A DNA stretch of 41,325 nucleotides, taken from assembly GCA_022703965.1 (NCBI GenBank), contig JAKJHH010000001.1, positions 1 through 41,325 on the forward strand, given 5' to 3'. The notes beneath the pieces were generated by a model, which was not told where the DNA came from, ran no database searches, and was given only the letters and a program-made list of their open reading frames with translations. Of the stretch, positions 3,920 through 21,579 are shown piece by piece (position 1 is the stretch's first letter; the number at the start of each line of letters is the position of its first letter). A program made the translations under genes and the position numbers. Source of the stretch: Verrucomicrobiota bacterium (GTDB taxonomy: Bacteria > Verrucomicrobiota > Lentisphaeria > Victivallales > UBA1829).

Positions 3920-4896
3920 ATGAGAAGGAAATCACCAAACAGCATGTCAAGTCTCGCGAAGAGTCTGGGAATATCGCAATCGACAGTTTCCAGAGCGCTC
4001 TCAAACAGCCGCGAGATTTCAAGAGAAACCCGTTCGAGGATCATTGGAGCCGCGAGAAAAGCCGGAGTCTCAATCACACAGCGAGCCTCAGTAAGCGTTC
4101 TGCTCCCCGTCAGCTCAATGGGAATTGTAGGATCAAATTCCTACATGGTTACAGAATTGATGAATGAGTCGGAACGCAGAGGAAAACTGATAGATTTCAT
4201 TCCACTGGATCACATAGAGATTCTGAACGAGAGGACAACTGAGGGAGTAATCTCACTGGACTTTCTCTACAATGTTTCAAAAGTATTCGGACACAAGTGG
4301 AATCTTCCTCTGGTCTGCATCAACGAACACTCGAATCTGCTGGAACAGGCATATTCAGTATCCTCCAATGAGCAGAAAGCCATGCGTGATACCGTGGATT
4401 ATCTGGTAGGGCTGGGACATCAGCGTATCGGCTTGCTTTACATGGGCGACGCTAAAGTATTCATAAGCAAACTCCGAATCGAAACATTCCAGCAGCAACT
4501 GACGAAACACGGCGGAATCTCTTTTGTCGAACCGATGAACTACATGGGGAAAAACGGCATATATCTGCCCTGCCGCTAAACAAACTTATGAAGAACAAAA
4601 TCACAGCCCTTGTCTGTTGCGGTGAAGGCTGCTGGAAACATGCAGTTCCGGCTTTGCGCCGGGCAGGAATACGCTATCCTAAGGATGTTTCAATATTCGT
4701 TTGGATGAATCCGAGCGAACAGGACATTTCCGACCCGCCTCTAAGCGGAGTCACTCAAAACTTCCGCGAGCTTGCCCGTGAAGCATTCGATCTGCTGGAC
4801 AAACAGATCAGAGGCGAACAGCGTCTTCAGAATGTTCAGGTCGATTACCTTTTTCTTGAAGGCAAATCATCCTCCCTGCCACGTCGAAAGAAGTGA
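3920..4896 (+). pseudogene. LacI/GalR-family transcriptional regulator interrupted by a single frameshift
   Basis: ORF 3920-4579 (frame 2) encodes the HTH (LAKSLGISQSTVSRALSNS) and the first half of the sugar-binding domain. ORF 4588-4896 (frame 1, open from 4456) encodes the remainder (KITALVCCGEG...PLSGVTQNF). Together they make about 325 aa. A G4A5 homopolymer sits at 4546-4554, within the frame overlap. Confidence 0.75.
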
Positions 4897-4922: not shown

Positions 4923-5747
4923 CTATTTCCCATTCTCATAGAAACGTCTGTATTCTGTTGGTGACATTCCGCTTTGATGTTTAAAAAAACGGGAAAAGTA
5001 AAATTCCGAACTGAAATGCAATTTCTCAGCTATCTCCCGAACGGTTAACGAGTAATTTCCAAGAAGAACAGAAGATTTACGGAATAGAATCCTGTGTATA
5101 AGATCCTTTGGAGGGATTCCCATTTCCCTCGTAAATTTACGCGAAAAAACATCCTGACGCATCTTTTTCATTTCAGCCAAGGCTCCGACCGTAAGCAAAG
5201 CAGTACATTCCTTCTCAACATAATCCAGAATTGTCTGCCAGTCAGAACGGTATTTCATATCGTTTTTGAAAAGCTCCGGCTTCTCTCTCAGACAATTACT
5301 GCACAAAGAATAGATTATTTCGTTTATCCTGCATAAAGCAAAAGGCTCGTCATGACTTCGGATCAAGTTTCTGGCTTCATCTACAATATCGGGTCTGTCA
5401 AAAACACGGCATTCGGGAAATCTGGACATCAAATCAAAGCCGGGAAAAAGATCTAGATTAAACTGAAAGGAAACAAACTCCAAGTCCTCCGTCTGATGCT
5501 GATTGATCTCATAACGGCAGGGAACAAAATATATGTTTCCTCTCCTCATCGGATGCAAAACGCCGTTTGCCAGGTCATGAATATAACTGTCATCTTGTCC
5601 TGAATCAGCAAATATCATCAAAAGACGATTGACTGGAAGAAATGATTTTTCGCTATGACACGGATATGTTCCGCTAGCTGCATGCACAAGGCGCAAATGC
5701 AGTTGCGTATGTAAATTCAGAAGATCTCTTCTTATCTCAACTGCCAT
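4923..5747 (-). CDS. AraC/XylS-family regulator (cupin-like N-domain plus C-terminal HTH)
   Basis: 274-aa ORF. The C-terminus reads LTVREIAEKLHFSSEFYFSRFFKHQSGMSPTEYRR. It is divergent from the GRE operon. Confidence 0.8.
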   Translation of the reverse strand: MAVEIRRDLLNLHTQLHLRLVHAASGTYPCHSEKSFLPVNRLLMIFADSGQDDSYIHDLANGVLHPMRRGNIYFVPCRYEINQHQTEDLEFVSFQFNLDLFPGFDLMSRFPECRVFDRPDIVDEARNLIRSHDEPFALCRINEIIYSLCSNCLREKPELFKNDMKYRSDWQTILDYVEKECTALLTVGALAEMKKMRQDVFSRKFTREMGIPPKDLIHRILFRKSSVLLGNYSLTVREIAEKLHFSSEFYFSRFFKHQSGMSPTEYRRFYENGK

Positions 5748-5777
5748 AAAAGTATATTTTTATGCCTCATTTTACTA

Positions 5778-5806
5778 TTCATATGAACTATAATATGCCT
5801 TATAAT
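5778..5806 (+). promoter_or_regulatory. candidate promoter of the GRE/activase operon
   Basis: TTCATA (5778-5783), a 17-nt spacer, then TATAAT (5801-5806). A second overlapping TATAAT at 5789-5794 makes the assignment ambiguous. The intergenic region is 103 bp and AT-rich. Confidence 0.35.
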
Positions 5807-5850
5807 CTAATACAAGCAAATCAAATAAAATCAAGATAAAGAGCAATATC

Positions 5851-8061
5851 ATGTTATCGGAACAATTCAAAAAAGACCGTCCTTATCTGGAGCGTAAATT
5901 CAAAACTCAAATCTGCAATCCGGCAACAGGACTTGATAATGAAACCCTCAAGTCCAATTTGATCAGACTGACCGAAGAACTCAATGGCGAGCCACATGAG
6001 CTTATAAAAGCCAAAGCCTTCCGCTATGTCTGTGAAAATCTGGTAATCGACGTAAATCCACAGGACTTCTTTGTATGCTTCGGATGCTGGAACCGCTATG
6101 ACAGACCTCTCAGTTTCCTCATGTCAAAATGGGAAGATGAAGTTAATAAAAACTGCCTGAAGGAACTCAAAACTCTGGAGGAGCAGAATGCAAGCGGATC
6201 CTCGAAAATGTGGAAAGACTTCGACCATTCAGTTCCTGACTGGGAAGCCGTTCTGAGTCTTGGATTCCCGGGACTTCTTGAGCGGGTTAAAACTTATCGC
6301 CGAAAATGCGAAGCGGATGGAAAAATGGGGCTTGATGAGAAAGCTTACTACGAAGGGCTAGAAATCACCTATGCGGCAATACTCAAAATGCTGGATCGTT
6401 TTCATCTGTACGCGCTTGAACATTCAGATGGCAACCAGCGCGTAAAAGCAGTTGCTGCATGTCTGGATTCATTACGCAAAGGAGCACCATCTAATATATT
6501 CGAAGCGCTGCAACTTATCTATCTCTTTTTCATTTTCGGAGAACACATTGACCGCTTTCAGGTACGCTCGCTGGGCAATCTCGACCGCATGCTTTATCCA
6601 TATTTTCAGCACGACATAGCAGAAGGGCGTTACACGGAAAAAGAGATTCGAGATTTCTTTGCCTACTTCATGATGCAGTGGGCATCTATTGACAATTACT
6701 GGGGACATCCGTTCTATTTTGGCGGCAGCAAGGCAAACGGTGAAACAGAAATCAACGATCTATCCTACCTTATTCTGGATGTCTATGACCAGCTTGATAT
6801 ACCAACGCCCAAGCTTCAGATCAAGATTGCAGCAAACACTCCAGTAAAGTTCATAGACAAGGCTCTCGATATGATCCGCCGCGGACACAGCAGCATCGTA
6901 TTCCTGAGTGAAAACGCAATCCGCCGCGCCCTGCTCGGACAAGGCTGCACGGAAGAAGAAGCCCGCACCTGTGTGATCTCTGGATGCTATGAATTCATAC
7001 CTCAAGGACGCGGCAACGGCACATGCGCCGGACACATTAATATGCTTAAACCGATAGAACTGCTATTCCACAATGGAAGAGATCCTAAGACCGGAATTAG
7101 TTGCGGAATAAAGACAGGAGAACTATCAGAGTTTAAAACATTTGACGAGTTTTACAAAGCTTACATACAACAACTTGAGCACATCATTGAAAGCGTCCTG
7201 AAATGCGCTAATGATTTTGAAAAATATCTGCACCGGATCAACCCGGCACAGGTCTACTCCGGAACAATTGAAAACAGCCTGAAAACTGCAAAAGACGCTT
7301 TCCATAACGGCTCTGTCTATAATATTTCGGGCATCCTGAACGCCGGATTCGCAAATGCTGTTGATGCCCTCATGGTGATCAAAGATTTCGTCTTTGAAAA
7401 ACATGAAGTCAATCTAGCGGAATTCAGAGATATCCTTCAGGCAAATTGGCAGGGACATGAAAAACTGCGCCTGAAAATTCTGAATTCCAAGAATAAGTTC
7501 GGAAACGGAATAGAATCTGTAGATTCCTTTGCCGAAGGACTGGCTTTATTTCTGGCAAACAAAATCAATATGAGACCGAACTCCAGAAACGGCTTTTTTG
7601 CAGCATCAATGCATTCAGCCCGCCAGTTCATTGAACTCGGAGAAAAGACCGGAGCCAGTCCGGACGGACGTCTGGCAGGCGAAGAAATCTCAAAAAATGC
7701 GTCTCCTGTAATGGGAATGGATAAAAATGGAGTCACGGCTCTGATAAAATCCGTTACAAAAATCGACTCCGCACTTTTCCCGGGGGACTTTCCGCTGGAT
7801 GTAATGATGCATCCCGCCACAGTTCAGGGAAATGAAGGATTAAACGCGATGAGAAGTCTTCTGAAAACCTACATGGATAAGCATGGCATCGCAATTCACT
7901 TCAATATCTTTGACGCTAATGTATTGCTGGACGCGCAGAAACATCCCGAAAAGTACGAGGGCTTACAGGTACGAGTCTGCGGCTGGAACGTCCGTTTTAA
8001 CGACATCGCCAAAAGAGAACAGGATGAATACATCAAAAGAGCCTTGAGCATAAAAGAGTAA
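5851..8061 (+). CDS. glycyl radical enzyme, PFL2/eliminase-type, substrate unknown
   Basis: 736-aa ORF. The glycyl radical motif VRVCGWNVRF has Gly711 at nt 7981-7983. The Cys loop ISGCYEF has Cys379 at nt 6985-6987 and Glu381 at nt 6991-6993. GRE-like blocks EALQLIYLF and GNLDRMLYPYF are present. Confidence 0.9.
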   Translation: MLSEQFKKDRPYLERKFKTQICNPATGLDNETLKSNLIRLTEELNGEPHELIKAKAFRYVCENLVIDVNPQDFFVCFGCWNRYDRPLSFLMSKWEDEVNKNCLKELKTLEEQNASGSSKMWKDFDHSVPDWEAVLSLGFPGLLERVKTYRRKCEADGKMGLDEKAYYEGLEITYAAILKMLDRFHLYALEHSDGNQRVKAVAACLDSLRKGAPSNIFEALQLIYLFFIFGEHIDRFQVRSLGNLDRMLYPYFQHDIAEGRYTEKEIRDFFAYFMMQWASIDNYWGHPFYFGGSKANGETEINDLSYLILDVYDQLDIPTPKLQIKIAANTPVKFIDKALDMIRRGHSSIVFLSENAIRRALLGQGCTEEEARTCVISGCYEFIPQGRGNGTCAGHINMLKPIELLFHNGRDPKTGISCGIKTGELSEFKTFDEFYKAYIQQLEHIIESVLKCANDFEKYLHRINPAQVYSGTIENSLKTAKDAFHNGSVYNISGILNAGFANAVDALMVIKDFVFEKHEVNLAEFRDILQANWQGHEKLRLKILNSKNKFGNGIESVDSFAEGLALFLANKINMRPNSRNGFFAASMHSARQFIELGEKTGASPDGRLAGEEISKNASPVMGMDKNGVTALIKSVTKIDSALFPGDFPLDVMMHPATVQGNEGLNAMRSLLKTYMDKHGIAIHFNIFDANVLLDAQKHPEKYEGLQVRVCGWNVRFNDIAKREQDEYIKRALSIKE

Positions 8062-8065
8062 AATT

Positions 8066-8962
8066 ATGAGTACAGAAGGCATTGTTTTTGAGATCAAGCG
8101 CTTTGCAGTTCATGACGGCCCCGGTATCAGAACAACTCTGTTCTTAAAGGGATGTCCATTGCGTTGTTTATGGTGCCACAATCCTGAAAGCATATCTCCG
8201 CATCCTCAACTGGCTTATTATGCGCATAAATGCATCAATTGCGGAGAATGCGTCTCTGTATGTCCCGAACATGCACATGCCATAAGTCTTGAAAAACTGC
8301 ATTATTTTGAGCGAAGAAAATGCAGGAGCTGCGGAAAATGCGAAACTGCCTGTCTTGGAAATGCCCTGCAGCTCTATGGTATGAGAATGACTGTACAGGA
8401 GACCTTGAATGCGGCTCTTGAAGACAGAGACTTTTTCGGAGACGATGGCGGAGTAACTTTATCCGGCGGAGAACCGCTCCTTCAAGCGGATTTCTGCTTC
8501 GAAATTCTTACCGCCTTAAAACGGCAAGCTATTCATACGGCACTCGACACTTGCGGACAAGTCAAATGGAAAACTATGTCTATGATCTTGAACTGCACTG
8601 ACATATTTCTTTTCGACTTTAAAGCTGCAAATCCCCAAAAGCATCACAAACTTACCGGCAGTGATAACAGGCAGATTCTGGAAAACCTGCAAAAACTCTC
8701 CGATGCAGGTGCAGAAATCGAGATCAGAATGCCGCTGATTCCCGCTTTAAACGACTCCGACGAGGATATCCATGAGGCCGGAAAAATCCTTAGTAACCTG
8801 CATATAAAATCCATCAAAATCCTTCCTTATCATAACATGGCACGCAGCAAATACGATGCACTTGGAATGGCAAATAAAATACCTGCTTCAAGCTCTCAAG
8901 ACAATGTAAATTCACTGCATGCCGTTGAAATACTCCGTAATTACGGATTAGAGATCAATTGA
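8066..8962 (+). CDS. glycyl radical enzyme activating enzyme (radical SAM, with auxiliary ferredoxin-type clusters)
   Basis: 298-aa ORF. It carries DGPGIRT and CPLRCLWC (CX3CX2C, nt 8153-8176), plus the additional Cys-rich motifs CINCGECVSVCP and CRSCGKCETAC. It starts 4 nt after the GRE stop. Confidence 0.9.
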   Translation: MSTEGIVFEIKRFAVHDGPGIRTTLFLKGCPLRCLWCHNPESISPHPQLAYYAHKCINCGECVSVCPEHAHAISLEKLHYFERRKCRSCGKCETACLGNALQLYGMRMTVQETLNAALEDRDFFGDDGGVTLSGGEPLLQADFCFEILTALKRQAIHTALDTCGQVKWKTMSMILNCTDIFLFDFKAANPQKHHKLTGSDNRQILENLQKLSDAGAEIEIRMPLIPALNDSDEDIHEAGKILSNLHIKSIKILPYHNMARSKYDALGMANKIPASSSQDNVNSLHAVEILRNYGLEIN

Positions 8963-8981: not shown

Positions 8982-11900
8982 TCATTTGACCTTAAGACGG
9001 ATCTCTGCGGAACTGTCCGGCTTCAGCGGGATTCTGATAAGTCCTTCGGAATCACGTTTGAATTCCTGAGAATCAATTTCAGTACTGCTTGAAAGGATGA
9101 GTTCTGGTTTTTTCCCAGTCTGAATTTTCATGAAGAACTCTTTTGAATCAGGATTGAACTCAATCGATTCGATCTTGATATCTTTAGAATTTTTCACCCT
9201 GACTTTTCCGTATATCTGATCCAGTGACATCGCTATATTCGAGCTGAGTGTCATGCCGACATAATCGCTGGAAAGGAACTTGATAAGCTCTGCATTTTCA
9301 AGACACTTTTTCATCGCCTTCAACTTATCCTCTTTACTGATAATATCGGAATGAGAAAGTACATTCAAAAGTTTATGATCATGTATAAATTCACCTTTGT
9401 CGTTGTACAGATGCGGAAGAACAAATGATTTAATATATTCATCGGTTTCCTTTTTTGCATATTTATCGTAAAGTGGAAAGAGTTCCTGCGGAATCCCCTG
9501 ACTCATATCGTAAAGATGATATGAAGTGTTCTTATAGACATTTCCGAATTTATAATCATAGCCGTCCTCGCTGTAGCCTGTGCCATATACCTGCCCAGGC
9601 TTGAAAAAAGCCAGACCGGCTTCTTTATAATAATGCTTGAAAGAAAGTCTTGCCAGAGTAGCAACACTACGCCTTGCAGCGCGATAAAGACATTGATCCT
9701 GCCAGTCTTTATCTCCGATAATTTCTGCAATGCGTGCCACTTTAAGCATGCCCGGATATTCGCAGTTTAGCATATCTATGGAGGCAGACATGCCGGATTC
9801 CCCGCAATGCCCTGTCAAAGTTATCCAGTCATCGCCAACAAAGAGCAGTTTTGTAAAGTAACGGAACCATGTCTCATTGGCGCGTATGAGCTCGATTTGT
9901 CCATGCTGATCTGCCAAAGCTCTGGCTGTGGTAGTAATCATATAAACCGTTTCATTCGAGTCTGCGAAATTGAAGTTTGATCCCTTGCCGGGAGCGAATT
10001 TACTGTGATGCATGCGAGGACTGTTGTAGCATAACGGATAGCGGATACCGCTGAACGGCTCTTCCCTCCATGCAACCGCACTCTTATACGCATACTGTTC
10101 AAGCGGCAGAAAGAAGCGATAGCTCAGACGTTCCTCAAGAATCGAACGATTTTCCGGGCTGAGACTAAATGGAGACGCTACGATATCGGATGTGCCCTGA
10201 AGCCACATGTGGAGGCAGATATTCTGTTCCGGTCTGTCAGGCTTGAATGTATGCTCGAAGTTGGCTGTTCTGATATTTCTTCTGCCGCCTATGAATTCCG
10301 ATGCCTTGCGAAAGACATCATCGCATTGAGCGTCAATTCTATTTTGTCCGCTGAGATGAGGAACCAGATTCAACGAGTCTTCAGGCAGAGGCAAAGTCCA
10401 TTCCACTGTATCAGTCCCCGGCCTGGCCGCGTAATAACCGAAACTTGTAGCAAGATTCCAGTTTTCAACGCCCTCTCCTTCAAAAAGCATCCCCTTCATG
10501 AAGTAAAGCAGAGGCGATACAGGAGCATAATGTTCGGGTTTCATGCTCCAGTCGTTGGCAGTATCCTTAAAGCTGTAAATACTGCGGATGCGGACAAGCT
10601 TTGCCTTTTCGTCAATCTTAAACATTTCTTTATATGAAACAGGATAGGCAAAGCTTTTCGGAAGCCAGAAATTGATTCTGTTGAGCGTTTCTTCAGGTAA
10701 AATTTTCTCCCATGAGTCAGTTTTTACCTGAGCTTTCCCATAAAGCCAAAGCGGAACTATCATGCCGATGCCGCTTTTGTGTTCAATACTGATGCCGCCG
10801 ACTTCATTTCCAAAATGCTCAACTGTGATCCTGTCCAGTTTTTTCGAAAAAACAAGGAGCAGCGGCGAACCGTTGTCTTTCGGAAAAAGCAGGATTGCCG
10901 GCTTATCCCAGTCACAAGGAATACTGTCGGTCTTTGCGAGATCAAAAATTTCCACAGCGCCTTTTCTGAATACAGCCGCATATGAGGCTATATTGCTGAG
11001 AGCCATATGAATATTTTCACTCTGAAAATCCCAACGTACTCCTGGAAAAGCCAGTGATGTGTCAAATCTTCCCTGAATGCTGTTTTCGCGACCGCTTACA
11101 ACAGCTCCTTTGCCGAGAGGATTAGCTCTGTCAATCTTCACGTCCAAAACTGATTTTTCAGAAATCGCCGGGACTATTTCCGGACAGCTTCCAAAACCTC
11201 CGCTGCCTCTGACATTCTGAGTCACAATACGGATTTCATTGACTTCTCCATACTTGATCTGTTCCCGGGCTATGACATAACGATGCGGTCTGCACCAGTA
11301 CTGAGGCATATCCAGAGTAACTTCACCTATAAGATTCCCGTTAAAATAGACTTGTGCTGTATCATCAATACCTCCTTCTACCTGAAAGCGCAGAGGAGCA
11401 TTCTTCCAGTTTTCAGGAATAAGCGCGGATGCCGTCAGTTCCACAGTGCCAATCTGCCCGTACATATAGTTCCAGTCAATATCCTTTTCTGATTCTGCCG
11501 GACTGCCTGAAATTGAACGTATATGCCATTTGCCTATACGCAGTTTGGGAAGAGAGTTCTTTCTGAATTCATACTGCCCGCTTCCATTACCGACAGAAAG
11601 GCCGTTATTCATGGACTCACAAAGCAGGCCGTCTCCGAGCATGAAGCCTACACGTCCAATGTTTTCCTCGCTGGCGCCAAGTTGCCAACCGTTTTCTTTT
11701 AAGGCAGAAGGACGCGCTTCTTCAGGAATTTTCTTGCCTGTCAATTCCGCAAGAGTCCTAAGTAAAAGAGGATCATAGGAATTTTTTCCCGGGATAAGAT
11801 CAACTCCTATGCCCAACGCCATATATACAACGCGTCCCTTGCCTGAAAGTCCTTCGACCATGACAGGTGTTCCGTCTGCGTAACTTAGGCGCAGTTTCGC

Positions 11901-12926
11901 GTCTTTTTTCAGGGAAAGATCATGATAGACTCCGAATGTATTCTGGGACAAGCCTTTGAAGATAGGATCATTCTGATCCGCGGCCTTTAATTTTTCTCTT
12001 TTGGGAAATCCCTTGCTGCTCATCGGCTTCTCTTCAACAGGCATTATAGCCATGATTTCCGGATCGGCGATTGCTGAGGCCGCGTAAAGCGGAGTTCCTT
12101 TCTCCACTGCTCTTACAATGCGAGCCGCCATGACAGGAGCTTTTTTCGCCGAAGAATAGACTATGACATCCGCAGTTTCAGGCGAATCCGCAAGGAGCGC
12201 ATTTTTCTTTACAGCCGAAATCAGCATTTCACGAAAACCGGGATAAGGAAGTGGATCGCTTAAACCATTCAGGGAAACAGGCTTTAGATCTTCATTGTCA
12301 AAATGGAAGTATATGCGCATCGCATTGGCATCCGGACGAATCTCAGGACGTTCAGGCGGATATACTGTCACATCCGGCTTTTCGGTTCCCTTACCGATAT
12401 TCTCCGCCAAGTCCATCTGAAAATCTCTAATCTCGACCGTAACCGGATGCCCTGCCCTGACTCCGTTGAGGCTTATCCAAGGCTTGATCTGCCAAATGTG
12501 ATAATCCTTGTCCAGAAGTCCGAAATCGCTGTCCAATGCAAAAGTATACTGTGCAAAATTCCTACCCGACACAGTAAGCTTAGGCCCCCATTTTGTGACG
12601 ACTTTGCCATCTTCCTTTGTCGTGAAAATCAGATAAATTTGAACCGATTCCCCTCCAGGAACTCGGGCTCTGAAAAAGAGTTTTCCCTGAGCATGACGCG
12701 GCGCATCTACCGTGCGGACGACCTGTGCTCCGCATTTTGAATCGTTGGCAGCTGACGGACTCAGCGTCAAATTAAAGTCTTCAGGTGAAAAAGACTCCAT
12801 GTCGGCTTTTGTTTCAGGACTTATTGTCTGGGGAATCACGCTCCAGTCTTTTTTCGCTTCCGCCGACTGGCAGAAAAAAAGAGGGAGAAGGGAAATCAGG
12901 GCGCAAAGAACTATACTTGTTTTCAT
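8982..12926 (-). CDS. large (~1314 aa) secreted multidomain protein, putative novel glycan-active enzyme
   Basis: I chose the start at the internal ATG (12926-12924) because the longer ORF would overlap the upstream pseudopilin gene. The signal peptide is MKTSIVLCALISLLPLFFCQSAEA/KK. A galactose-binding-like segment reads LRFQVEGGIDDTAQVYFNGNLIGE. I recognised no catalytic family. Confidence 0.6.
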   Translation of the reverse strand: MKTSIVLCALISLLPLFFCQSAEAKKDWSVIPQTISPETKADMESFSPEDFNLTLSPSAANDSKCGAQVVRTVDAPRHAQGKLFFRARVPGGESVQIYLIFTTKEDGKVVTKWGPKLTVSGRNFAQYTFALDSDFGLLDKDYHIWQIKPWISLNGVRAGHPVTVEIRDFQMDLAENIGKGTEKPDVTVYPPERPEIRPDANAMRIYFHFDNEDLKPVSLNGLSDPLPYPGFREMLISAVKKNALLADSPETADVIVYSSAKKAPVMAARIVRAVEKGTPLYAASAIADPEIMAIMPVEEKPMSSKGFPKREKLKAADQNDPIFKGLSQNTFGVYHDLSLKKDAKLRLSYADGTPVMVEGLSGKGRVVYMALGIGVDLIPGKNSYDPLLLRTLAELTGKKIPEEARPSALKENGWQLGASEENIGRVGFMLGDGLLCESMNNGLSVGNGSGQYEFRKNSLPKLRIGKWHIRSISGSPAESEKDIDWNYMYGQIGTVELTASALIPENWKNAPLRFQVEGGIDDTAQVYFNGNLIGEVTLDMPQYWCRPHRYVIAREQIKYGEVNEIRIVTQNVRGSGGFGSCPEIVPAISEKSVLDVKIDRANPLGKGAVVSGRENSIQGRFDTSLAFPGVRWDFQSENIHMALSNIASYAAVFRKGAVEIFDLAKTDSIPCDWDKPAILLFPKDNGSPLLLVFSKKLDRITVEHFGNEVGGISIEHKSGIGMIVPLWLYGKAQVKTDSWEKILPEETLNRINFWLPKSFAYPVSYKEMFKIDEKAKLVRIRSIYSFKDTANDWSMKPEHYAPVSPLLYFMKGMLFEGEGVENWNLATSFGYYAARPGTDTVEWTLPLPEDSLNLVPHLSGQNRIDAQCDDVFRKASEFIGGRRNIRTANFEHTFKPDRPEQNICLHMWLQGTSDIVASPFSLSPENRSILEERLSYRFFLPLEQYAYKSAVAWREEPFSGIRYPLCYNSPRMHHSKFAPGKGSNFNFADSNETVYMITTTARALADQHGQIELIRANETWFRYFTKLLFVGDDWITLTGHCGESGMSASIDMLNCEYPGMLKVARIAEIIGDKDWQDQCLYRAARRSVATLARLSFKHYYKEAGLAFFKPGQVYGTGYSEDGYDYKFGNVYKNTSYHLYDMSQGIPQELFPLYDKYAKKETDEYIKSFVLPHLYNDKGEFIHDHKLLNVLSHSDIISKEDKLKAMKKCLENAELIKFLSSDYVGMTLSSNIAMSLDQIYGKVRVKNSKDIKIESIEFNPDSKEFFMKIQTGKKPELILSSSTEIDSQEFKRDSEGLIRIPLKPDSSAEIRLKVK

Positions 12927-12949
12927 TTTCAAACTTCTTTTTTTGGTTT

Positions 12950-13723
12950 TTATGGACGGTTTTCCGTTGCACGGGCCGAGCCGTCGAATGACCATGGATT
13001 ATCAGGGAAATTTATCGCCTGAAGAATCCCGTATTGAGCATACCATTGAGACTGAATCTGCAAAACGGTGCTTCCGGAACCGCGAATTCCGGAAACATGG
13101 CCGTCTCCATGAAGACAGTTGGCAAGCCTTTCCTTGTCGTGAGTCGGTTTTGCGCAGGTTCCAGTCATTTTATTACGAGTGCGCGACACGGCTCCGGACT
13201 CAATTGCCGCAATAAATCTGGCTGGTCCTTTTACAGCTCCGGCCTTGAGCCATGAACAGTTGTCAGAGGCTTCACGTCCTCCCATTTCGTTGGTATTGAG
13301 TCCGTGTGCCGCATATTGCCAGGCATAAAGATTATCCGTTATTTTATTCTGGTCAAACATCTTGCGATAGTTTATGTTCGGATCTGCCGGATCAATATTC
13401 GAGGTCGCTGATTTACAGAAAAAAACCTTGGGAATCACATAGTTCATTTCACAGAAGAATTGAGTCCAGTAATACGGCTCACCTGAGCCTTTAAGGTAGA
13501 GATGAGCCTTTGGATAATAATCATTATAGTCTCCATGGTAGACACTGATTGCGCTGCCAACCTGACGCTGATTATTTACACATGTAATTGTAAAGCCTTT
13601 TTCCCTCACTGTATTGAGCGCCGGCAGCAGCATGCTGGCCAGAACGGAGATAATTGCTATCACCACCAAAAGCTCAATCAAGGTGAAATTTGTCCGTCCG
13701 AACTTTTCTGTCGTAAATTTCAT
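12950..13723 (-). CDS. prepilin-type N-terminal cleavage/methylation domain protein (DUF1559-like pseudopilin)
   Basis: The N-terminus is [36 protein letters not shown], with Phe+1 and Glu+5. The C-terminus contains HGDGH. A strong SD (GGAAGGTG) lies 5 nt upstream of the ATG. Confidence 0.8.
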
Positions 13724-13793: not shown

Positions 13794-15416
13794 TTAAGCT
13801 ATTTCTATTGAGCTCAATGCGATCTGAATTTCATCTCTTACAGGCTCAACGCCCGAGGGCCATGACGGCGTTTTATAGAGATCGCCGAATGCGAATTTCC
13901 GGATCAGTTTTCCGCTGAATTCTCTGACAATTTCATTGATGGAAATTTTCAGACTCTCATTCTCCAGCTCAATCGCAATAGCGTTTTCTTCCTTGAGCCT
14001 TATATGAGTCAGTGCTTCATTTCTCCCATCCGCGAATTCCGCAAAGAGCATGTCCTGATCTGTTTCTTTGTCATAGCGCAGACTTAGCTTAAAACCGTCT
14101 CTTGTCTTGCCTCCGGCGCTGAAAACGCAAAAATCGTTCTCGTTTCGGACTCTGCTTTTAAAACGGAAGTCAAGCTTGAGCCTTTTCTGTGCGCTAAGTT
14201 CAGGAGTTAAAACGATATTCATACATGACTGAAGATGATTAAGTATGATTCTGTCTTCTTCAATCTCAGTGCGAAGTCCCGGACGGGATTCTCTCGGCAT
14301 CAGAAAAGCTTTTGAGAAATCCGGCAACTCTTCTATCACGCTTCCCATTATGTAGTCTGGATAAGTGTAAGCGCAGTATATTTTCCCGTCTTTTACAAAA
14401 GCGTTCGGATAAAAGCCCCTTCCCCCTTCTGCCTGAACGACAGGTCCCGGAAGCAATGTGTCAGGATCAGGCAACGGAGCAAGGTAAAGCGATAAATAGA
14501 GACGGTCTTCCGGTCCTGTTTCCGGACGTATTCCAGGCTGCCAGTCGTTCATTATCATAAAGATCGGGCTTTTCCCATCCTGCACGGTTCCGGCGTAACA
14601 GCGCGAGGCTACTGATTCGACCTCAACAGGACTGCACTTAGTCCAGCTATAGCCCTTGTCTTTGCTGACTGCGGATAAAATACAATGCTCGGTTTTAGAC
14701 TGATACCCCTTCCCCGGTTCCCCGGCATTTCTGATGAGCATACAAAGTTCATTTTCGCCGGATTCAAGTATCATCGGTTCCCAGATGTTAATGCGCTCTA
14801 CGTTTTCCGGAAGAACTGCTTCAGTGACTCCGCCCCATTCCCAGTTTGCTCCGCCGTCTCTGCTCATAAGGATTCCGGCATAACGGCAGGCTCCTATCTC
14901 ATGATTATCTTTTTTGACCGGAAAGCTCAGCGGAAATATCATTGTTCCGTCCTGACAGAGAAATCCGTGATTTGTCGGAAATGCCACCGTATTTTCAGGC
15001 ATCTTGCCGGATGCTTTCAGCTCTTCATTTGTCCAGTGAATCCCGTCCTCCGTTTCGGCTATATAAGTCTTTTCAGCGTTGTAGTCACACCAGAGACAGA
15101 AAACTTTCTCGTCCTTGTAGTTGATAAGTGAAGGCTGCCACTGGTTGTCAGATTTGACTGGATTACTGCAAAGTTCTCCTGAAAAAACCTGAAGCGGAGC
15201 GCTCCAGCTTTTGAAGTCCTCCGAGCGGCTTATGAAATTATACTGTCCAGGATAATTCTCCTGCCCTGTAGAATTTGCGTTCCAGAGAGCCAGAAATGAG
15301 TTTTTAAAAGGAACTATATCCACGCAATGATTGTATCTGAGATAAGGCTTGCTGCCGTTCCTCGGGAAGTATATCGGACTGCGGCTAATCTTCGGACTGT
15401 ATATTGAAATTGACAT
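13794..15416 (-). CDS. BNR/Asp-box beta-propeller protein (sialidase-fold glycosidase-like) with a C-terminal beta-sandwich-like domain
   Basis: 540-aa ORF. Four Asp-box-like motifs are present: SEDFKSW, TEDGIHW, SRDGGANW, SKDKGYSW. No signal peptide. I did not see a clear FRIP motif. Confidence 0.6.
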   Translation of the reverse strand: MSISIYSPKISRSPIYFPRNGSKPYLRYNHCVDIVPFKNSFLALWNANSTGQENYPGQYNFISRSEDFKSWSAPLQVFSGELCSNPVKSDNQWQPSLINYKDEKVFCLWCDYNAEKTYIAETEDGIHWTNEELKASGKMPENTVAFPTNHGFLCQDGTMIFPLSFPVKKDNHEIGACRYAGILMSRDGGANWEWGGVTEAVLPENVERINIWEPMILESGENELCMLIRNAGEPGKGYQSKTEHCILSAVSKDKGYSWTKCSPVEVESVASRCYAGTVQDGKSPIFMIMNDWQPGIRPETGPEDRLYLSLYLAPLPDPDTLLPGPVVQAEGGRGFYPNAFVKDGKIYCAYTYPDYIMGSVIEELPDFSKAFLMPRESRPGLRTEIEEDRIILNHLQSCMNIVLTPELSAQKRLKLDFRFKSRVRNENDFCVFSAGGKTRDGFKLSLRYDKETDQDMLFAEFADGRNEALTHIRLKEENAIAIELENESLKISINEIVREFSGKLIRKFAFGDLYKTPSWPSGVEPVRDEIQIALSSIEIA

Positions 15417-16704: not shown

Positions 16705-17580
16705 TCACTTTTCCTTATATTTGCTTGGAGTCTCTCCAAAATGCCGTTTAAATTCTTTGGAAAAATGAAACTCATCATAATATCCCAGCTCATAAGCAGT
16801 TTCCCGGACGCTTTTTCCGCTTTCAAGAAGCTTTAGGGCTTCTTTCATCTTTTTCTCTCTCATATAGGCTTTAAGGGGCATTCCGAATTCATCCGGGAAA
16901 TTATGAGAAAGAAAAGAACTTGATTTAGCTGCCGCCTCTGCAAGCATGTTTAAAGTGATTTTCTTTGTCAGATTGGCTCCGATAAAATCTTCTATTTTTT
17001 CGGCCCAGTCCTTGTTATTGTTCTTGATGATCTCATTTTCGCTTATGTATTCGCTCAGATATTTCAGCAGAGCCCCGATATCATGCATCTCCTTTTCAGT
17101 AGATTCGCGATTCCTGAATATCAGAGAGTCTTCACTGTAGCCAAGATCTTTATAATCAAGCTCTTTGTCGCGTAGCTGCCCGAATACTATTGAACCAAGA
17201 TATTTGCGGTGTTTGTCGTAAAGCGGAATCATGCCTTCCAGGAGTCCGGTGTGACAATGATAAATGTGGATCTTTCGAGTCTTCCTGGCTGTTTCAAGAT
17301 TCTCCCGGTCACAGGCGATGCAGCGTTCTCTTGTCTCGGGATTTTTGCGATTTTCATTGCAAAAAGGAGAAATCTCCTTGATGTTGAACCCCTCAAGCTC
17401 TCCTCCTTGAAGATCGAAAAAGGTTATGCGTATATCCAGAACGCGATAAAGCAGTCCCATTATCTCGTTCATCTCATTTGTCTGCACAATGTATTTAAGC
17501 ATATCCGATATCTCCTTCAAATAATATGTACTAATATTCATAAAATGCCAGATTTTACATGTAAAAGTTTTTTCTTCCAT
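16705..17580 (-). CDS. AraC-family regulator with an N-terminal PocR sensory domain
   Basis: 291-aa ORF. The PocR-like segment reads FCNENRKNPETRERCIACDRENLETARKTRKIHIYHCHTGLLEGMIPLY...GSIVFGQL. The C-terminal AraC HTH reads ETAYELGYYDEFHFSKEFKRHFGETPSKY. Confidence 0.75.
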   Translation of the reverse strand: MEEKTFTCKIWHFMNISTYYLKEISDMLKYIVQTNEMNEIMGLLYRVLDIRITFFDLQGGELEGFNIKEISPFCNENRKNPETRERCIACDRENLETARKTRKIHIYHCHTGLLEGMIPLYDKHRKYLGSIVFGQLRDKELDYKDLGYSEDSLIFRNRESTEKEMHDIGALLKYLSEYISENEIIKNNNKDWAEKIEDFIGANLTKKITLNMLAEAAAKSSSFLSHNFPDEFGMPLKAYMREKKMKEALKLLESGKSVRETAYELGYYDEFHFSKEFKRHFGETPSKYKEK

Positions 17581-17608
17581 TCAAATAGCATCTCAGAGCT
17601 TCTATAAT
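17580..17608 (+). promoter_or_regulatory. candidate promoter of the isomerase-kinase-GH36-aldolase operon
   Basis: TTCAAA (17580-17585), a 17-nt spacer, then TATAAT (17603-17608). The SD AAGAGG lies 6 nt before the ATG at 17647. Confidence 0.4.
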
Positions 17609-17646
17609 TATTGCCATAACGATGAATTTTCAGAAAGAGGATATTT

Positions 17647-19050
17647 ATGCTTCGCAAAACCAGTTTCGCTCTATTTTTCGGCAACCGCGGATTTTTCCCT
17701 GAAAGCCTGATTGCTTCGGCAAGAAAAGAAATCTCAGCACGTCTGGAATCTCTTGGCTACGGCGTTCTGATGTCCGACGAAAAAGCAACTCGTTACGGTG
17801 CCGTGGAAAGTCCGGAAGAAGGCCGCACTTATGCCGCTTTTCTGGAGAAAAACAGGGGGAATTTTGACGGGGTAGTTCTCTGTCTGCCGAATTTCGGCGA
17901 TGAAACCGGAGCTGTCGAGGCTCTTCGTGACGCTAATGTGCCTATATACATTCTGGCTTATCCGGACGAACTCGATAAAATGGATTTCTCCTCACGCCGT
18001 GATGCCTTCTGCGGAAAGTTTTCCATCATGGATGTCTTCAAGCAGTACGGAATCAAGTTCACGGTATTTCCGCCGCACGTGCTTTCTCCGTCCTCGAAAC
18101 TCTTTGAGGAACAGATTGCCGATTTCGCCGCCGTCTGCCGCGTTGTCAAGGGAATGAAACGTTGCACTGTAGGCGCTGTCGGAGCCAGAACAAGCGCCTT
18201 CAAGACAGTTCGTTTCGATGAGCTTTGTCTTGAAAAGTACGGCATCACGACTGAAGTTTTCGACCTCTCCGAGATCATCCGCCTCGTTCAGCTGAAGGAT
18301 ATGGAGACCGCCGAGTGCAAGGCCAAAAAAGAGACATTCAAAAACTACTGCGATTTCAGCTCAGTTCCGGAATCGAATTTTGCGAATCTGGTTAAACTCT
18401 CGGTAGTTCTGGATGAGATCATAGCAGAAAATCATCTTGATGCTCTGGCTCTGCGCTGCTGGCTGGAACTCGAAAAAGTCCTCCATATCGCTCCTTGCGT
18501 AATTCTCAGCGAACTCAACGACAGAGGCTTCCCTGCCGCCTGCGAACTTGATATCGGAAACGCCATTGGAATGTATGCTCTGAAACTTGCCACCGGAAAT
18601 CCGGCTGCCTGTCTCGACTGGAACAACAATTATGCCGATGATCCGGACAAGTGTATTCTCTTCCACTGCGGACCAGTCGCTCAGTCGCTTATGACTGCAA
18701 AAGGCAAGGTTATAGATCATCCCATGTTCGCCAAGGCTCTCGGTGCCGGATGCGGCTACGGCTGCAATGTCGGCAGAATCGCCCCTGCCCCGTTTTCCTT
18801 CGCGAGTTCGACAACTCAGGACGGCAAGTTGAGTTTCTACATCGGTGACGGAGAATTCACTGCTGACCCGATCGCTCCTGAATTCTTCGGTTGCGCAGGT
18901 GTTGCAAAAATCGAGAATCTTCAGCGCAAACTCTATAATCTCGGTTATGCCGGATACCGTCATCACGTAAGCGTGGCTCCCGGCAGAGTCGCTTCAGCTC
19001 TCCGTGAAGCCTTTTCCCGTTACCTTGGCTATGAAATAACGGAAATCTGA
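17647..19050 (+). CDS. L-fucose isomerase-family (short, ~470 aa) aldose-ketose isomerase
   Basis: 467-aa ORF. It shows FucI-family features: LCLPNFGDE, ACELDIGNAIGMYAL, DWNNNY, GYRHHVSVAPG. Confidence 0.75.
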   Translation: MLRKTSFALFFGNRGFFPESLIASARKEISARLESLGYGVLMSDEKATRYGAVESPEEGRTYAAFLEKNRGNFDGVVLCLPNFGDETGAVEALRDANVPIYILAYPDELDKMDFSSRRDAFCGKFSIMDVFKQYGIKFTVFPPHVLSPSSKLFEEQIADFAAVCRVVKGMKRCTVGAVGARTSAFKTVRFDELCLEKYGITTEVFDLSEIIRLVQLKDMETAECKAKKETFKNYCDFSSVPESNFANLVKLSVVLDEIIAENHLDALALRCWLELEKVLHIAPCVILSELNDRGFPAACELDIGNAIGMYALKLATGNPAACLDWNNNYADDPDKCILFHCGPVAQSLMTAKGKVIDHPMFAKALGAGCGYGCNVGRIAPAPFSFASSTTQDGKLSFYIGDGEFTADPIAPEFFGCAGVAKIENLQRKLYNLGYAGYRHHVSVAPGRVASALREAFSRYLGYEITEI

Positions 19051-19054
19051 ACAT

Positions 19055-20539
19055 ATGAGCTATCTTGGCATCGACATCGGAACAAGCGGAGTAAAAGCCG
19101 TCCTCTTCAACGAGGACGGTGAGAATCTCGGCGGAGCCTATCGTCCTTATTCGTTGAAAACGGATGAGTCCGGAGCTGCCGAACTGGACTCCTCTCTTGT
19201 CATGAAACTTGCCTGTGAAGTGATTGCTGAAGCCGCTTCTCATGTCTCCGGAGATCCTGTGAAGGCTCTTTGCGTTTCTAGCCAGGGAGAAGCCGTAACT
19301 CCGCTTGGAACTGACGGCGAATATCTGGCAAACGCCATGGTGTCATCCGACCGAAGACCCGCCCCTTTCGTCGATCTTTTTACAGAGCAGTTCGGCCTTG
19401 AAAAACTCTATCGGATTACAGGGCATACTCCTTCGACTCTCTTCACCCTTTTCAAGATACTGTGGATGAAGGAGAAGAGGCCGGATATCTGGAAGAAAAC
19501 TCGTCGTTTATACTGTTTTGAAGATCTTCTTCATCAACGTCTTGGCATGAGTCCGGCGATGGGCTGGTCTCTTGCCGGAAGAACTATGCTTTTTGATGTC
19601 ACAAAGCATTCTTGGAGTCCTGAGATTCTGGATGCGCTTGAACTTGATGAGTCCTTTTTTGCGCGTCCTCTTCCAAGCGGTTCAGTGGCTGGCATCATTC
19701 CTGATAAAATCGCCGCCGCTCTTGGACTTCCTTCCGGCGTGAAAGTGGTTTGCGGCGGACACGATCAGATTATCGGAGCTCTCGGCGCCGGAGTCACTGA
19801 AGAGTCTACCGCCATGTATGCAGCCGGAACCGTGGAATGTATCTGTCCTGTCTTTTCCACTTTGACGCTTAACTCTCAGCTTTGCAAGAGAAACCTCTGT
19901 TCCTATGACTATGCGATAGAAGGTAAATACAGTTCGGTCGCCTACAGTCTTACGGGAAGCAATCTTTTTCAGTATTTTAAAGAAGAATTAGGCGGAGGCC
20001 GTTCCTATGCAGAACTACTGAATGAAATGCCGTCCACACCCTCTAAGCTGCTTGCTCTGCCATACTTTACGCCATCTGGTACGCCGTATTTCGATGGCAC
20101 AACCCCAGGCGCGATATTCGGACTTCGTCTTACAAGTTCGCGCGGTGAAATCCTGAAAGCTCTTCTGGAATCCGTTGCACTGGAAATGCGCCTGAATCTT
20201 TCGATAATGGAAGAAGCAGGAATGAAGATAAATCGTTTGATTGCGACCGGCGGCGGCGTTCGCGACCGCATGGCAGTTCAACTTAAAGCCGATGTCATCG
20301 GCAAGACAATTGAAACGATAGATGTCAGAGAAGCCGGATGTCTTGGAGCCGCTAGACTTGCACAATCGGCAGATCTAGGAATTCCGGTCATGAAGCTGGT
20401 CAGACGTGAACGCAAGCCGGAAAATGAAATTCATCCCTCTTTTGATACAGCTAGCGCCTATGAAGATAAGTTTTTGCAATACAAGATCTTCTATAGTGAA
20501 ATAAAAAACATTTCTGACAGATTATGGAGACGATCATGA
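19055..20539 (+). CDS. FGGY-family carbohydrate kinase
   Basis: 494-aa ORF. The N-terminus is MSYLGIDIGTSGVKAVLF. GHDQIIGALGAG and ATGGGVRD motifs are present. Confidence 0.85.
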   Translation: MSYLGIDIGTSGVKAVLFNEDGENLGGAYRPYSLKTDESGAAELDSSLVMKLACEVIAEAASHVSGDPVKALCVSSQGEAVTPLGTDGEYLANAMVSSDRRPAPFVDLFTEQFGLEKLYRITGHTPSTLFTLFKILWMKEKRPDIWKKTRRLYCFEDLLHQRLGMSPAMGWSLAGRTMLFDVTKHSWSPEILDALELDESFFARPLPSGSVAGIIPDKIAAALGLPSGVKVVCGGHDQIIGALGAGVTEESTAMYAAGTVECICPVFSTLTLNSQLCKRNLCSYDYAIEGKYSSVAYSLTGSNLFQYFKEELGGGRSYAELLNEMPSTPSKLLALPYFTPSGTPYFDGTTPGAIFGLRLTSSRGEILKALLESVALEMRLNLSIMEEAGMKINRLIATGGGVRDRMAVQLKADVIGKTIETIDVREAGCLGAARLAQSADLGIPVMKLVRRERKPENEIHPSFDTASAYEDKFLQYKIFYSEIKNISDRLWRRS

Positions 20540-21579
20540 GCTCTTTAAAGTTTAATTACGCAAAAGGCACGGAAGCAGATTTTCTGCGTCATACTGCCGA
20601 TATGGAACAGATCGCCTGGGCAAGAGCGTCAGAGCTCTCCGAAGGCGACGGACGCGGCAACAGAATCATTGACATCAACAACGGTTCCGGACTTGCTTTC
20701 ACAGTCGCACCTGATCGAGGACTGGATATAGTCGAGGCTTCGTTCTGCGGGATTCCGCTTGCCTTCCGCGCTCCCGCTGGACATGTTAATCCGGGACGCG
20801 CCCTACACAACGGCCTCTCATGGCTGAGAAGCTGGAGCGGAGGACTTCTGACAAGCTGCGGACTCCGTCACGTAGGCCCTCCTGAAGACGATGAAAATCC
20901 CCTTGATCCTCATCGCGGCCTGCATGGACGAATATCGGCTCAGAGTTCTTCAGATACATTCATTCATCGGGGATGGGAGAACGGACACTATGCAATCAAA
21001 GTCGGCGGCACACTGCGCGAAGCAATGATGTTCGGGGAAAATCTCCGCATTGGCAGAGAAATCACTACTGCCCTTGGCGATAACTCCATCCATATTGAGG
21101 ATACTGTCCGCAATATCGGCTCAAATCATGAATTTATTCAGATGCTTTATCATTGCAATTTTGGATATCCTTTTATTGCGCAGGACAGTAGACTTGAAGC
21201 TCCGCCTCACAAAATTACTCCGCGTGATGAATCCACCGTTCCCGGCCTTGGCTCATGGCATATTATGAGCAAACCTGAGTCCGGCGTAAAAGAGCAGTGT
21301 TTCCTGCATGAGCTTCCATCTGACGAATACGGCTGGGCTTCGATATCTCTTTCAAGTCCGTTTACCGGAGTAAAACTTATGCTATCTTACGATAGCTCCA
21401 CGCTTCCGCGCCTCATGCAGTGGAAACTGATGGAGAACGGTCGCTATGTCCTTGGACTTGAACCCACTAACACAACAGTCTCAGGCAGAGCAAAAGATAT
21501 CTCGAATGGAATAGCGCCCCGTCTTGAAGCGGGTGAATCCATCCGTTTCAGAGTCCGCCTGAGTTTTGAACTTATTTAA
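20536..21579 (+). CDS. aldose 1-epimerase-like protein (DUF4432 type)
   Basis: The ORF track starts it at 20524. I prefer the ATG at 20536, which overlaps the kinase stop as ATGA and has GGAG 6 nt upstream. Mutarotase-superfamily-like segments are GLDIVEASFCGIPLAF, SGGLLTSCGLRHVG and LHGRIS. Confidence 0.6.
   Translation: MSSLKFNYAKGTEADFLRHTADMEQIAWARASELSEGDGRGNRIIDINNGSGLAFTVAPDRGLDIVEASFCGIPLAFRAPAGHVNPGRALHNGLSWLRSWSGGLLTSCGLRHVGPPEDDENPLDPHRGLHGRISAQSSSDTFIHRGWENGHYAIKVGGTLREAMMFGENLRIGREITTALGDNSIHIEDTVRNIGSNHEFIQMLYHCNFGYPFIAQDSRLEAPPHKITPRDESTVPGLGSWHIMSKPESGVKEQCFLHELPSDEYGWASISLSSPFTGVKLMLSYDSSTLPRLMQWKLMENGRYVLGLEPTNTTVSGRAKDISNGIAPRLEAGESIRFRVRLSFELI

Follow-up and report, generated by a model that had tools for sequence, protein, structure and literature searches.

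A short CxE glycyl radical enzyme in a Victivallales genome as a candidate for a new substrate specificity

Characterised relatives and the Victivallales locus

The characterised glycyl radical enzymes (GREs) with a CxE active-site motif that are listed in a June 2026 review are glycerol dehydratase (GD), propanediol dehydratase (PD), HpfG, HypD, HpyG, HpzG, CutC, IslA/IseG and HpsG, together with the isomerases HplG, YbiW and PflD, and the same review describes whole GRE clades as still unvalidated (PMC13450708). PflD and YbiW (8ID0, 8ID7), which catalyse ring opening of 1,5-anhydromannitol / 1,5-anhydroglucitol 6-phosphate, are the only characterised GREs with sugar-derived substrates, both of them anhydro-alditol phosphates (PMC13450708). 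Here we describe a GRE encoded on a 41,325-nt stretch of DNA from a Verrucomicrobiota bacterium of the order Victivallales (contig JAKJHH010000001.1, positions 1 to 41,325; hereafter the window). The gene (5851-8061, + strand) encodes a protein of 736 amino acids (aa) that lacks a signal peptide and is therefore taken as cytoplasmic, and it is followed by the gene for a radical S-adenosylmethionine (SAM) activase. Judged by its sequence, the protein is a GRE of the pyruvate formate-lyase (PFL)-like branch and CxE type and a strong candidate for a new specificity, and it is a member of what we term the ‘RVCGWN’ short-GRE superclade, a group defined in this analysis and not a curated family.

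The best sequence matches of the window GRE among solved structures are PD, GD, HypD and PflD, with GD of Clostridium butyricum (1R8W/1R9D) and PD of Roseburia inulinivorans (5I2A/5I2G) at the top (E values 1e-79 to 1e-82). Like these two enzymes, the window GRE has a ten-stranded barrel, finger loops for Gly and Cys, a C-x-E motif and a three-cluster activase, and the spacing from Cys379 to Gly711 (332 residues) is close to the 330 residues of GD and PD; however, identity is only 24-25%, the window protein is 51 aa shorter than GD and 107 aa shorter than PD, and its Gly and Cys loops read RVCGWN and C-Y-E where those of GD and PD read RVAGYS and C-V-E. HypD (6VXC/6VXE) has in common with the window GRE the CxE eliminase fold, the equivalent of its His160 and a three-cluster activase, PflD and YbiW share the CxE motif at 21-25% identity, and CutC, IslA/IseG and HpsG share the GRE fold, the CxE motif and three-cluster activases at 20-24% identity.

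Distance from characterised enzymes

On eight full-length eliminase/decarboxylase hidden Markov models of NCBIfam, the window GRE scored 206-333 bits against cut-offs of 678-1150, falling short of every one, and the equivalogs among them gave 206-330 bits against 1000-1150. The HypD model NF043068 was second best (330 bits, cut-off 1100), and the CutC (240, cut-off 1050), HpsG and HpfG (232 and 258, cut-off 1000), PflD (NF007437; 266, cut-off 1109), indoleacetate decarboxylase and HPA decarboxylase models all lay at 206-266 bits against 1000-1150. On TIGR01774, which covers the PFL2/PFL3-glycerol dehydratase subfamily, the window GRE reached 333 bits (cut-off 678), whereas among control eliminases the PD-like proteins of loci L075 and L078 (839 and 842) and the HypD of L071 (688) passed and others scored 637-665; five control proteins of the same locus set passed the HypD equivalog at 1196-1292 bits. 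Since canonical eliminases score 460-840 bits on one another’s models, the window GRE lies about twice as far from characterised eliminases as these do from each other.

An AF2 model built on a 23-sequence family alignment (pLDDT 89.6, pTM 0.90) has the full GRE barrel. Foldseek aligned it to more than 50 solved GRE chains at TM-scores of 0.82-0.88 and identities of only 19-25%, and PD, GD, HypD, PflD and CutC (0.86-0.88) were essentially equidistant from it. High identity to a characterised GRE, a possibility that the initial annotation of this locus had raised, is excluded by these identities to all solved GREs and by the scores below curated cut-offs. Literature searches, which took in all bioRxiv GRE preprints from 2024 to 2026, found no work on the RVCGWN clade.

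The Pfam matches of the protein are to the PFL-like domain PF02901 (3.4e-102) and the Gly_radical domain PF01228 (7e-24; residues 614-717), and some relatives are automatically annotated as ‘formate C-acetyltransferase’. An interpretation of the window GRE as a pyruvate or 2-ketoacid formate-lyase would agree with both, but we regard it as scarcely credible because a single Cys followed by Tyr-Glu stands in place of the Cys-Cys pair of PFL, the score on TIGR01255 is 104 bits against a cut-off of 994, PFL is a distant structural-database match (1e-21) and the activase is of the three-cluster rather than the PFL-activating enzyme (PFL-AE) type.

Sequence motifs and genuine short length

The glycyl radical loop R708-V-C710-G711-W712-N713 (7972-7989, +) was identified by translation and from the clade motif table; it begins the stretch RVCGWNVRF and places Gly711 25 residues before the C-terminus. 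The Cys loop G378-C379-Y380-E381 (6982-6993, +) contains the thiyl-radical Cys and the Glu of the CxE motif. These motifs, their spacing and the cluster motifs of the activase had been described before, and the listing of open reading frames (ORFs) and their translations place them at the same positions. In HMMER alignments His126 (6226-6228, +), part of the clade motif D123-F-D-H126, corresponds to GD His164, PD His166 and HypD His160, a position at which the GRE His has a general-acid or positioning role (PMC13450708, PMC7077986). Gln237-Val238-Arg239 lie at the end of strand beta1 (6559-6567, +), where Gln237 and Val238 replace GD His281/Ser282 and Gln237 stands at HypD Asp278, and the clade motif S614-K615-N616 (7690-7698, +) stands in place of the A/S-D/E-G of canonical eliminases.

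The protein had been suspected to lack 50 or more residues from its N-terminal half, and it does: its Cys loop comes 54 residues earlier than that of GD (379 versus 433), and the alignment places about 38 of the residues missing relative to GD within the N-terminal ~160 and the remainder in loops before residue 312. A miscalled start, the other explanation then considered, is excluded by an in-frame stop 45 nt before the start, which leaves no other start codon to choose from, and by more than 100 relatives at 54-75% identity that are nearly all 735-741 aa long. The enzyme is truly short, and its clade shares this trait.

The RVCGWN superclade

The signature of the superclade consists of DxDH, Arg239, GCYE, SKN, LDxxLHPS and RVCGWN in proteins of ~700-760 aa, and the window GRE has every element. 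His126, Arg239, Cys379 and Gly711 are each present in 66/66 superclade sequences, Glu381 and Tyr380 each in 63/66, and Asn616 and Asp650 are each conserved in at least 95%; the position of Arg239 is occupied by Phe or Ile in canonical enzymes. The pattern Q[VI]RVCGWN gave at least 600 matches in species-representative genomes. With phmmer, an exhaustive comparison against 1.84 billion representatives, each standing for a cluster at 50% identity, gave 1650 matches at E<=1e-30, of which nearly all of the ~147 best are of the short type (>140 clusters at 50% identity; 117 full-length and unfused, median 729 aa), and canonical-length proteins first appear at rank ~148. The description of this GRE as an ‘orphan’ does not survive these counts. 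Neighbour-joining trees recover the RVCGWN group as monophyletic and apart from the canonical RVAGY eliminases and, as far as sequence comparison can tell, the superclade is large, deep-branching and uncharacterised.

The hosts are Lentisphaeria/Victivallales, including Victivallis vadensis DSM 14823 (locus L061), Kiritimatiellia, Verrucomicrobiota, Planctomycetota (Phycisphaerae) and many gut and rumen Clostridia, all lineages of anaerobic glycan degraders. Their genomes often have two or three superclade paralogs, at times in one locus, and loci L013, L030, L032, L034 and L053 each hold two or three short-GRE paralogs, sometimes with one shared activase. Such paralog clusters point to a family expansion like that of sulfatases or glycosidases.

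Active-site composition

Positions were mapped by HMMER alignments to GD and PD and by the published HypD contacts (PMC7077986). The catalytic set is kept, with Cys379 at the position of GD Cys433, PD Cys438 and HypD Cys434, Glu381 at that of GD Glu435, PD Glu440 and HypD Glu436, and Tyr289 retained as the equivalent of GD Tyr339. The positions that shape the substrate site are occupied differently: Gln237 stands at HypD Asp278/GD His281, Val238 at GD Ser282, Trp284/Gly285 at HypD Asp339/Phe340, Cys392 at GD Asp447, His395 at HypD Tyr450, His588 at GD Tyr640 and Ala590 at HypD Thr645, and all six HypD contacts (Asp278, Ser334, Asp339, Phe340, Tyr450, Thr645) are absent. Among the GD contacts His164, Ser282, Phe333, Tyr339, Asp447 and Tyr640 (1R9D), only the equivalents of His164 and Tyr339 are kept in the window GRE, where the segment with Phe333 is deleted or shortened; it does not have the GD/PD contact set. 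PflD has Ser-Ser-Leu where the window GRE has Gln237-Val238-Arg239, and the sulfonate-binding Gln193 of IslA is replaced, its position being that of His126 as judged by alignment offset; IslA Arg189 and Arg678 could be mapped only roughly.

A short beta2-beta3 element, which carries GD Phe333, PD Phe338, CutC Phe389 and HypD Ser334, is deleted throughout the superclade; part of the compactness of the enzyme is therefore a remodelled pocket, which by this comparison is probably larger. Arg239 lies two residues past the beta1 position of HypD Asp278, and the loop after beta1 contributes to the substrate channel of GREs (PMC13450708). Arg239 and Lys615 were considered as anion-binding residues, a role that we do not claim, since Arg239 may just make up for the Arg of the canonical GRxDQ motif, which is missing in most clade members.

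Fusions of relatives to carbohydrate-active domains

Seven of the best 150 phmmer representatives are proteins of 941-1563 aa that end in the GRE, and the domains in front of it are AXE1 (two), SASA, a GH2 mannosidase-like domain, GH78, the PF06439 3-keto-disaccharide hydrolase and one unknown, so that all of the Pfam-assignable partners (6/6) are carbohydrate-active. A further search found GH5+GRE, SASA+GH5+GRE and PF12831 FAD-oxidoreductase+GRE proteins and a Tat-signal protein. The parts are joined seamlessly, with the clade motifs of the GRE intact; the GH5+GRE fusion is identical in two independent assemblies, and one SASA+GRE gene is followed by GH2 and GH127 genes. Most fusions belong to a Kiritimatiellia/Verrucomicrobiota branch adjoining that of the window GRE (39-42% identity), and since the GH78+GRE fusion sits in a deeper branch, fusion to carbohydrate-active domains arose at least twice. 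The fusions are independent evidence which suggests that the superclade acts on carbohydrates, and the PF06439 and FAD-oxidoreductase partners are a hint of keto-sugar chemistry.

All fusions of carbohydrate-active enzymes (CAZymes) to GREs start with signal-peptide-like or lipoprotein-like N-termini (fusion and related proteins P0132, P0133, P0141-P0144, P0259, P0277, P0312, P0327 and P0338; loci L103-L106); P0143 is a SASA-GRE and P0327 a GH5-GRE. P0312 has a twin-arginine motif and a lipobox (SRRDFIGG...MAGC), and P0284, an unfused Kiritimatiellae GRE, also looks exported; we know of no exported GREs. No activase adjoins these genes. The N-terminal extensions of the GREs in L002, L014, L024 and L030 were considered as further fusions and rejected, as they have no Pfam domain; most likely the reading frame stays open ahead of the real start codon.

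Genomic context of the window and related loci

Pfam scans of all ORFs of at least 150 aa in the window found two melibiase-like glycoside hydrolases (GHs), a GH78 rhamnosidase, a BNR_2 protein and GDSL esterases, and no shell, aldehyde dehydrogenase, phosphotransacylase or sulfite genes, which bears out the earlier observation that the usual context of such enzymes is absent. No shell-gene match was obtained by tblastn in the window or any locus with PduA/EutN-like probes, which are approximate. By these Pfam scans and approximate shell probes, the window, unlike the CutC, IslA and HpsG systems, has no microcompartment or sulfite-handling genes. The same holds more widely: in ~100 related loci the GRE has no neighbouring gene for an aldehyde or alcohol dehydrogenase, a phosphotransacylase or a shell protein.

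One alternative interpretation is that the enzyme is a microcompartment-free 1,2-propanediol or glycerol dehydratase that disposes of propanediol from glycosidase-released fucose or rhamnose. The closest matches in sequence and fold are PD and GD, the active site keeps the His/Cys/Glu triad as well as Y289, the counterpart of GD Tyr339, and the window has genes for a GH78 rhamnosidase, a fucose-isomerase-like protein, an FGGY kinase, a class II aldolase, an aldo-keto reductase and a PocR-domain AraC protein, all of which would fit. We consider this interpretation improbable because identity to PD and GD (24-25%) is no nearer than that to HypD, PflD or CutC; GD Ser282, Asp447 and Tyr640 are replaced and the pocket element with Phe333/Phe338 is deleted; the score on the PFL2-3 family model is 333 bits against 678, where true PD-like proteins reach ~840; the dehydrogenase, phosphotransacylase and shell genes do not adjoin it, here or in the ~100 related loci; and the PocR regulator belongs to another operon 8 kb away. 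Nor is a single C3 substrate easily reconciled with a superclade of more than 140 diverse clusters that has several paralogs in a genome and members fused to CAZymes.

A metagenome scan for close orthologs gave 13 loci, few of them close. In the loci of the ortholog group (n=10), an AraC-type gene lies upstream in 8 and an activase downstream in 9. Four of these loci have a gene for a CMD-family protein without Cys, and in 2 the GRE and activase genes are separated by one for a cytoplasmic Cys-type sulfatase. All-versus-all clustering and a Pfam census of neighbours found no conserved metabolic partner beyond the activase and AraC genes, and the neighbour census found no conserved kinase, phosphotransferase system or aldolase partner by modules of the window type, a difference from PflD and YbiW. 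Genes inserted in or abutting the GRE-activase pair encode a SASA acetylesterase (L006), an SGL lactonase (L011, L085), a GDSL esterase (L083), AXE1-like esterases (L004) and a Cys-type sulfatase (L001, L082), none of them with a signal peptide. The initial annotation had placed the pair inside a glycan island, and glycan genes are indeed found in the window, but this setting is not conserved among orthologs; on present comparisons, the apparent carbohydrate link rests on the gene fusions of relatives and on the operon-embedded esterase, sulfatase and lactonase genes, and not on the island.

The CMD-family genes by the GRE are at 7609-7995 in L001, 6657-6998 in L082, 6614-6988 in L083 and 9165-9548 in L101, and there is none in the window; the encoded protein may process the GRE product by decarboxylation or tautomerisation. 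A role as an AhpD-like redox partner, in a ribonucleotide reductase (RNR)-like reductive reaction via Cys710, was rejected for CMD proteins without any cysteine. In Verrucomicrobial loci, a gene for a Pfam-less protein of 600-720 aa immediately precedes that of the GRE in three cases (L014, 7112-8929; L030, 3215-5380 and 10397-12352), which makes this protein a conserved partner in that branch.

Another alternative is that the substrate is not a carbohydrate but an amino-acid derivative, amine, sulfonate or organic acid, with the carbohydrate links of relatives being coincidental. The substrates of most characterised CxE GREs are non-sugar metabolites (PMC13450708), ortholog loci are often without glycan genes, and the Cys-free CMD gene by 4/10 orthologs could mean an organic-acid or lactone product. 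We nonetheless consider this unlikely, although less so than a propanediol or glycerol dehydratase, because the 6/6 assignable fusion partners among the best 150 representatives are carbohydrate-active, with GH5 and FAD-oxidoreductase fusions besides, the genes embedded in the operons of related loci code for carbohydrate esterases, a sulfatase and sugar lactonases, and neither the HypD contacts nor the Arg/Gln/Arg sulfonate set of IslA and HpsG (Gln193 replaced, the Args roughly mapped) is present.

Activase, AraC regulator and promoter region

The GRE-activating radical SAM enzyme (8066-8962, +; 298 aa; Pfam Radical_SAM and Fer4 families) begins 4 nt past the GRE stop codon, making a two-gene operon, and the convergent gene at 8982-12995 (− strand) ends 20 nt beyond it. 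Translation shows the radical SAM motif C30-x3-C34-x2-C37 (8153-8176, +), and translation and Pfam delimit a ferredoxin-like insert with two CX2CX2CX3C motifs (C56/59/62/66 and C86/89/92/96; 8231-8353, +) that are predicted to bind two auxiliary [4Fe-4S] clusters. The activase passes TIGR02494 (342 bits, cut-off 174), its best equivalog is the HypD activase model, on which it stays below the cut-off (320 bits versus 425), and its best structural-database match is PFL-AE.

Two features had been read as marks of the eliminase branch, and neither discriminates as expected. Apart from PFL and RNR, nearly all GREs normally have activases with extra clusters (PMC13450708), which are therefore no pointer to that branch. 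The CxE motif is present as described, but it is also found in the isomerases HplG, YbiW and PflD (PMC13450708), and isomerisation is therefore as possible as elimination.

Divergent from the GRE is a gene for an AraC-family transcription regulator (4923-5747, −; 274 aa) with C-terminal HTH_18/HTH_AraC Pfam domains. Its N-terminal sensor domain has no Pfam or structural-database match, the latter search matching the helix-turn-helix (HTH) half only. Full-length orthologs (45-63% identity over ~250-268 aa) lie divergently upstream of orthologous GREs in L001, L082, L085, L099 and L100, whereas identity to the other AraC protein of the window is 33% and confined to the HTH. These co-inherited orthologs in five loci confirm the regulator as divergent from, and dedicated to, the GRE-activase pair. 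In a set of close loci (n=33), an activase is present in 24 and an AraC-type neighbour in 22, and nothing else recurs.

The intergenic control region between the AraC and GRE genes (5748-5850; 103 nt) contains a block composed of AAAAGTATA, TTTxTGCC, ATTCA, a spacer of ~18-20 nt and TATAAT, and this block is kept in six ortholog loci where the proteins are only 61-74% identical. The full-length orthology of the AraC proteins and the conserved promoter block thus indicate that regulator, oxygen-sensitive radical enzyme and activase are inherited as a unit. The best sigma-70-like site of the region is TTCATA-17-TATAAT (5778-5806), with 10/12 positions matching. A repeat search found the direct repeat TATGCCTCAT / TATGCCTTAT (5761-5770 and 5794-5803, +; 33 nt spacing), which we infer to be a candidate pair of AraC half-sites. 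The repeat TATGCCTYAT was also considered as a conserved operator and rejected: the exact repeat is not kept in orthologs, in which only the surrounding promoter block is.

Proposed function and points against it

The initial annotation had singled out the pair as a strong candidate for a new specificity and thought a sugar-derived substrate conceivable, a proposal that is supported by the divergence of the enzyme, its replaced contacts and the fusions of its relatives. We consider it reasonably probable that the window GRE performs substrate-induced, redox-neutral radical C-O cleavage of a cytoplasmic carbohydrate. The genes, their motifs, the fold, the clade membership, the conserved catalytic residues and the fusions and neighbours are observed, and from them we infer the chemistry, the inducer and the substrate class of the module. 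The AraC protein encoded at 4923-5747 would sense a small molecule via its N-terminal domain and then activate the conserved divergent promoter. By family membership, the activase would use its CX3CX2C [4Fe-4S] cluster and SAM, with electrons arriving via the two auxiliary clusters, and H would be abstracted from Gly711. The Gly711 radical would give rise to a thiyl radical at Cys379, which would take H from a hydroxyl-bearing substrate carbon, and Glu381 would deprotonate the substrate hydroxyl to yield a ketyl radical. An oxygen-linked group on the adjacent carbon would then depart with the assistance of His126, the leaving group being water or perhaps the oxygen of a ring, a glycosidic bond, an ether or an ester, and the product radical would regain H from Cys379. 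The net reaction would be C-O cleavage by dehydration, another 1,2-elimination or ring-opening isomerisation, leading to a deoxy-keto compound. A mechanism like that of PflD and YbiW, in which C-O cleavage runs via a ketyl radical, is plausible by analogy. The substrate is most likely a cytoplasmic carbohydrate, either a monosaccharide, whether free or decorated, or a small glycoside, and would be none of glycerol, propanediol, choline, hydroxyproline, a sulfonate or an anhydro-alditol phosphate.

Several observations weigh against this carbohydrate reading. The CAZyme fusions are found in neighbouring branches (31-42% identity), outside the ortholog group of the window GRE, and GREs are usually narrowly substrate-specific (PMC13450708). 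Host genomes are CAZyme-rich and adjacency alone is therefore weak evidence; beyond AraC, the activase and at times a CMD-family gene, the neighbours in ortholog loci are unrelated, several of these loci being surrounded by genes like FeoAB, NifU and HSP70, and the Pfam census of 119 neighbours found 111 families and no dominant partner. The neighbour-joining trees carry no support values. Finally, the RVCGW core is present, but the published Gly-domain fingerprint, RVxG[FWY]x6-8[FL]x4Qx2[IV]x2R (PMC13450708), matches residues 708-730 in relaxed form only, the strict regular expression failing because Ile stands in place of [FL] and Tyr in place of [IV].

This failure, along with the frameshift in a neighbouring LacI gene, could also be taken as a sign that the gene pair is decaying or non-functional. 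Such decay seems highly improbable given that neither ORF is broken and none of the catalytic or cluster-binding residues is missing, that more than 100 relatives share the length and the invariant residues of the GRE, that both fingerprint deviations are conservative and, by the family consensus, clade-wide, and that the AF2 model is confident.

More tentatively, and with somewhat less than even confidence, the RVCGWN superclade as a whole may be an unrecognised class of carbohydrate-active GREs that cleave C-O bonds of sugars and glycosides by thiyl/ketyl chemistry without oxygen or cofactor turnover. For example, a sugar diol would be dehydrated to a deoxy-keto sugar, rendering a glycosidic, ether, acyl or sulfate substituent labile. 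If so, the superclade would be the radical counterpart of NAD- or FAD-dependent 3-keto-glycoside routes, the window would encode a cytoplasmic, AraC-controlled version, and the Kiritimatiellia version, joined to glycosidases and esterases, may be exported. Anaerobic glycan degraders in guts, rumens and sediments would then own a radical enzyme family for carbohydrate chemistry beyond hydrolases, a family that so far figures neither in CAZyme catalogues nor among the characterised GREs. Because the clade is large, multi-paralog and widespread in Planctomycetota-Verrucomicrobiota-Chlamydiota (PVC) bacteria and Clostridia, one assigned function would annotate thousands of genes, and the compact module, the cultured host of a relative (V. 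vadensis) and the substrate hints from fusion partners make the question directly testable.

Other genes in the window

A LacI-family regulator gene at 3920-4896 (+) is split across frames (HTH, 3920-4579; Peripla_BP_3, 4588-4896) and is a frameshifted pseudogene or reflects a sequencing error. The convergent gene downstream of the activase (8982-12995, −) encodes a secreted protein of 1337 aa with no Pfam domain, whose real start is probably the second Met, with a signal peptide. Two further genes convergent with the activase encode a pseudopilin-like protein with a prepilin-type N-terminus (FTLIELLVV...; 12950-13723, −) and a BNR_2 sialidase-like protein without signal peptide (13794-15416, −).

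The second AraC protein, which has a PocR sensory domain (16705-17580), is divergent from a sugar operon, the whole region extending over 16705-25548. This operon encodes a fucose-isomerase-like protein, an FGGY kinase, a DUF4432 protein, a GH36-like melibiase, a class II aldolase and an aldo-keto reductase, and is probably an unusual (deoxy)sugar pathway. A sugar-oxidation cluster (25539-40631, −) comprises an Amidohydro_2 lactonase, a 7-bladed lactonase, an MFS transporter, two Zn-dependent alcohol dehydrogenases, two GFO/IDH/MocA proteins, three short-chain dehydrogenases/reductases, a LacI regulator, a GDSL esterase, a xylose-isomerase-like TIM barrel protein and the GH78 rhamnosidase. Pairs of GFO/IDH/MocA and TIM-barrel proteins are typical of 3-keto-glycoside routes.

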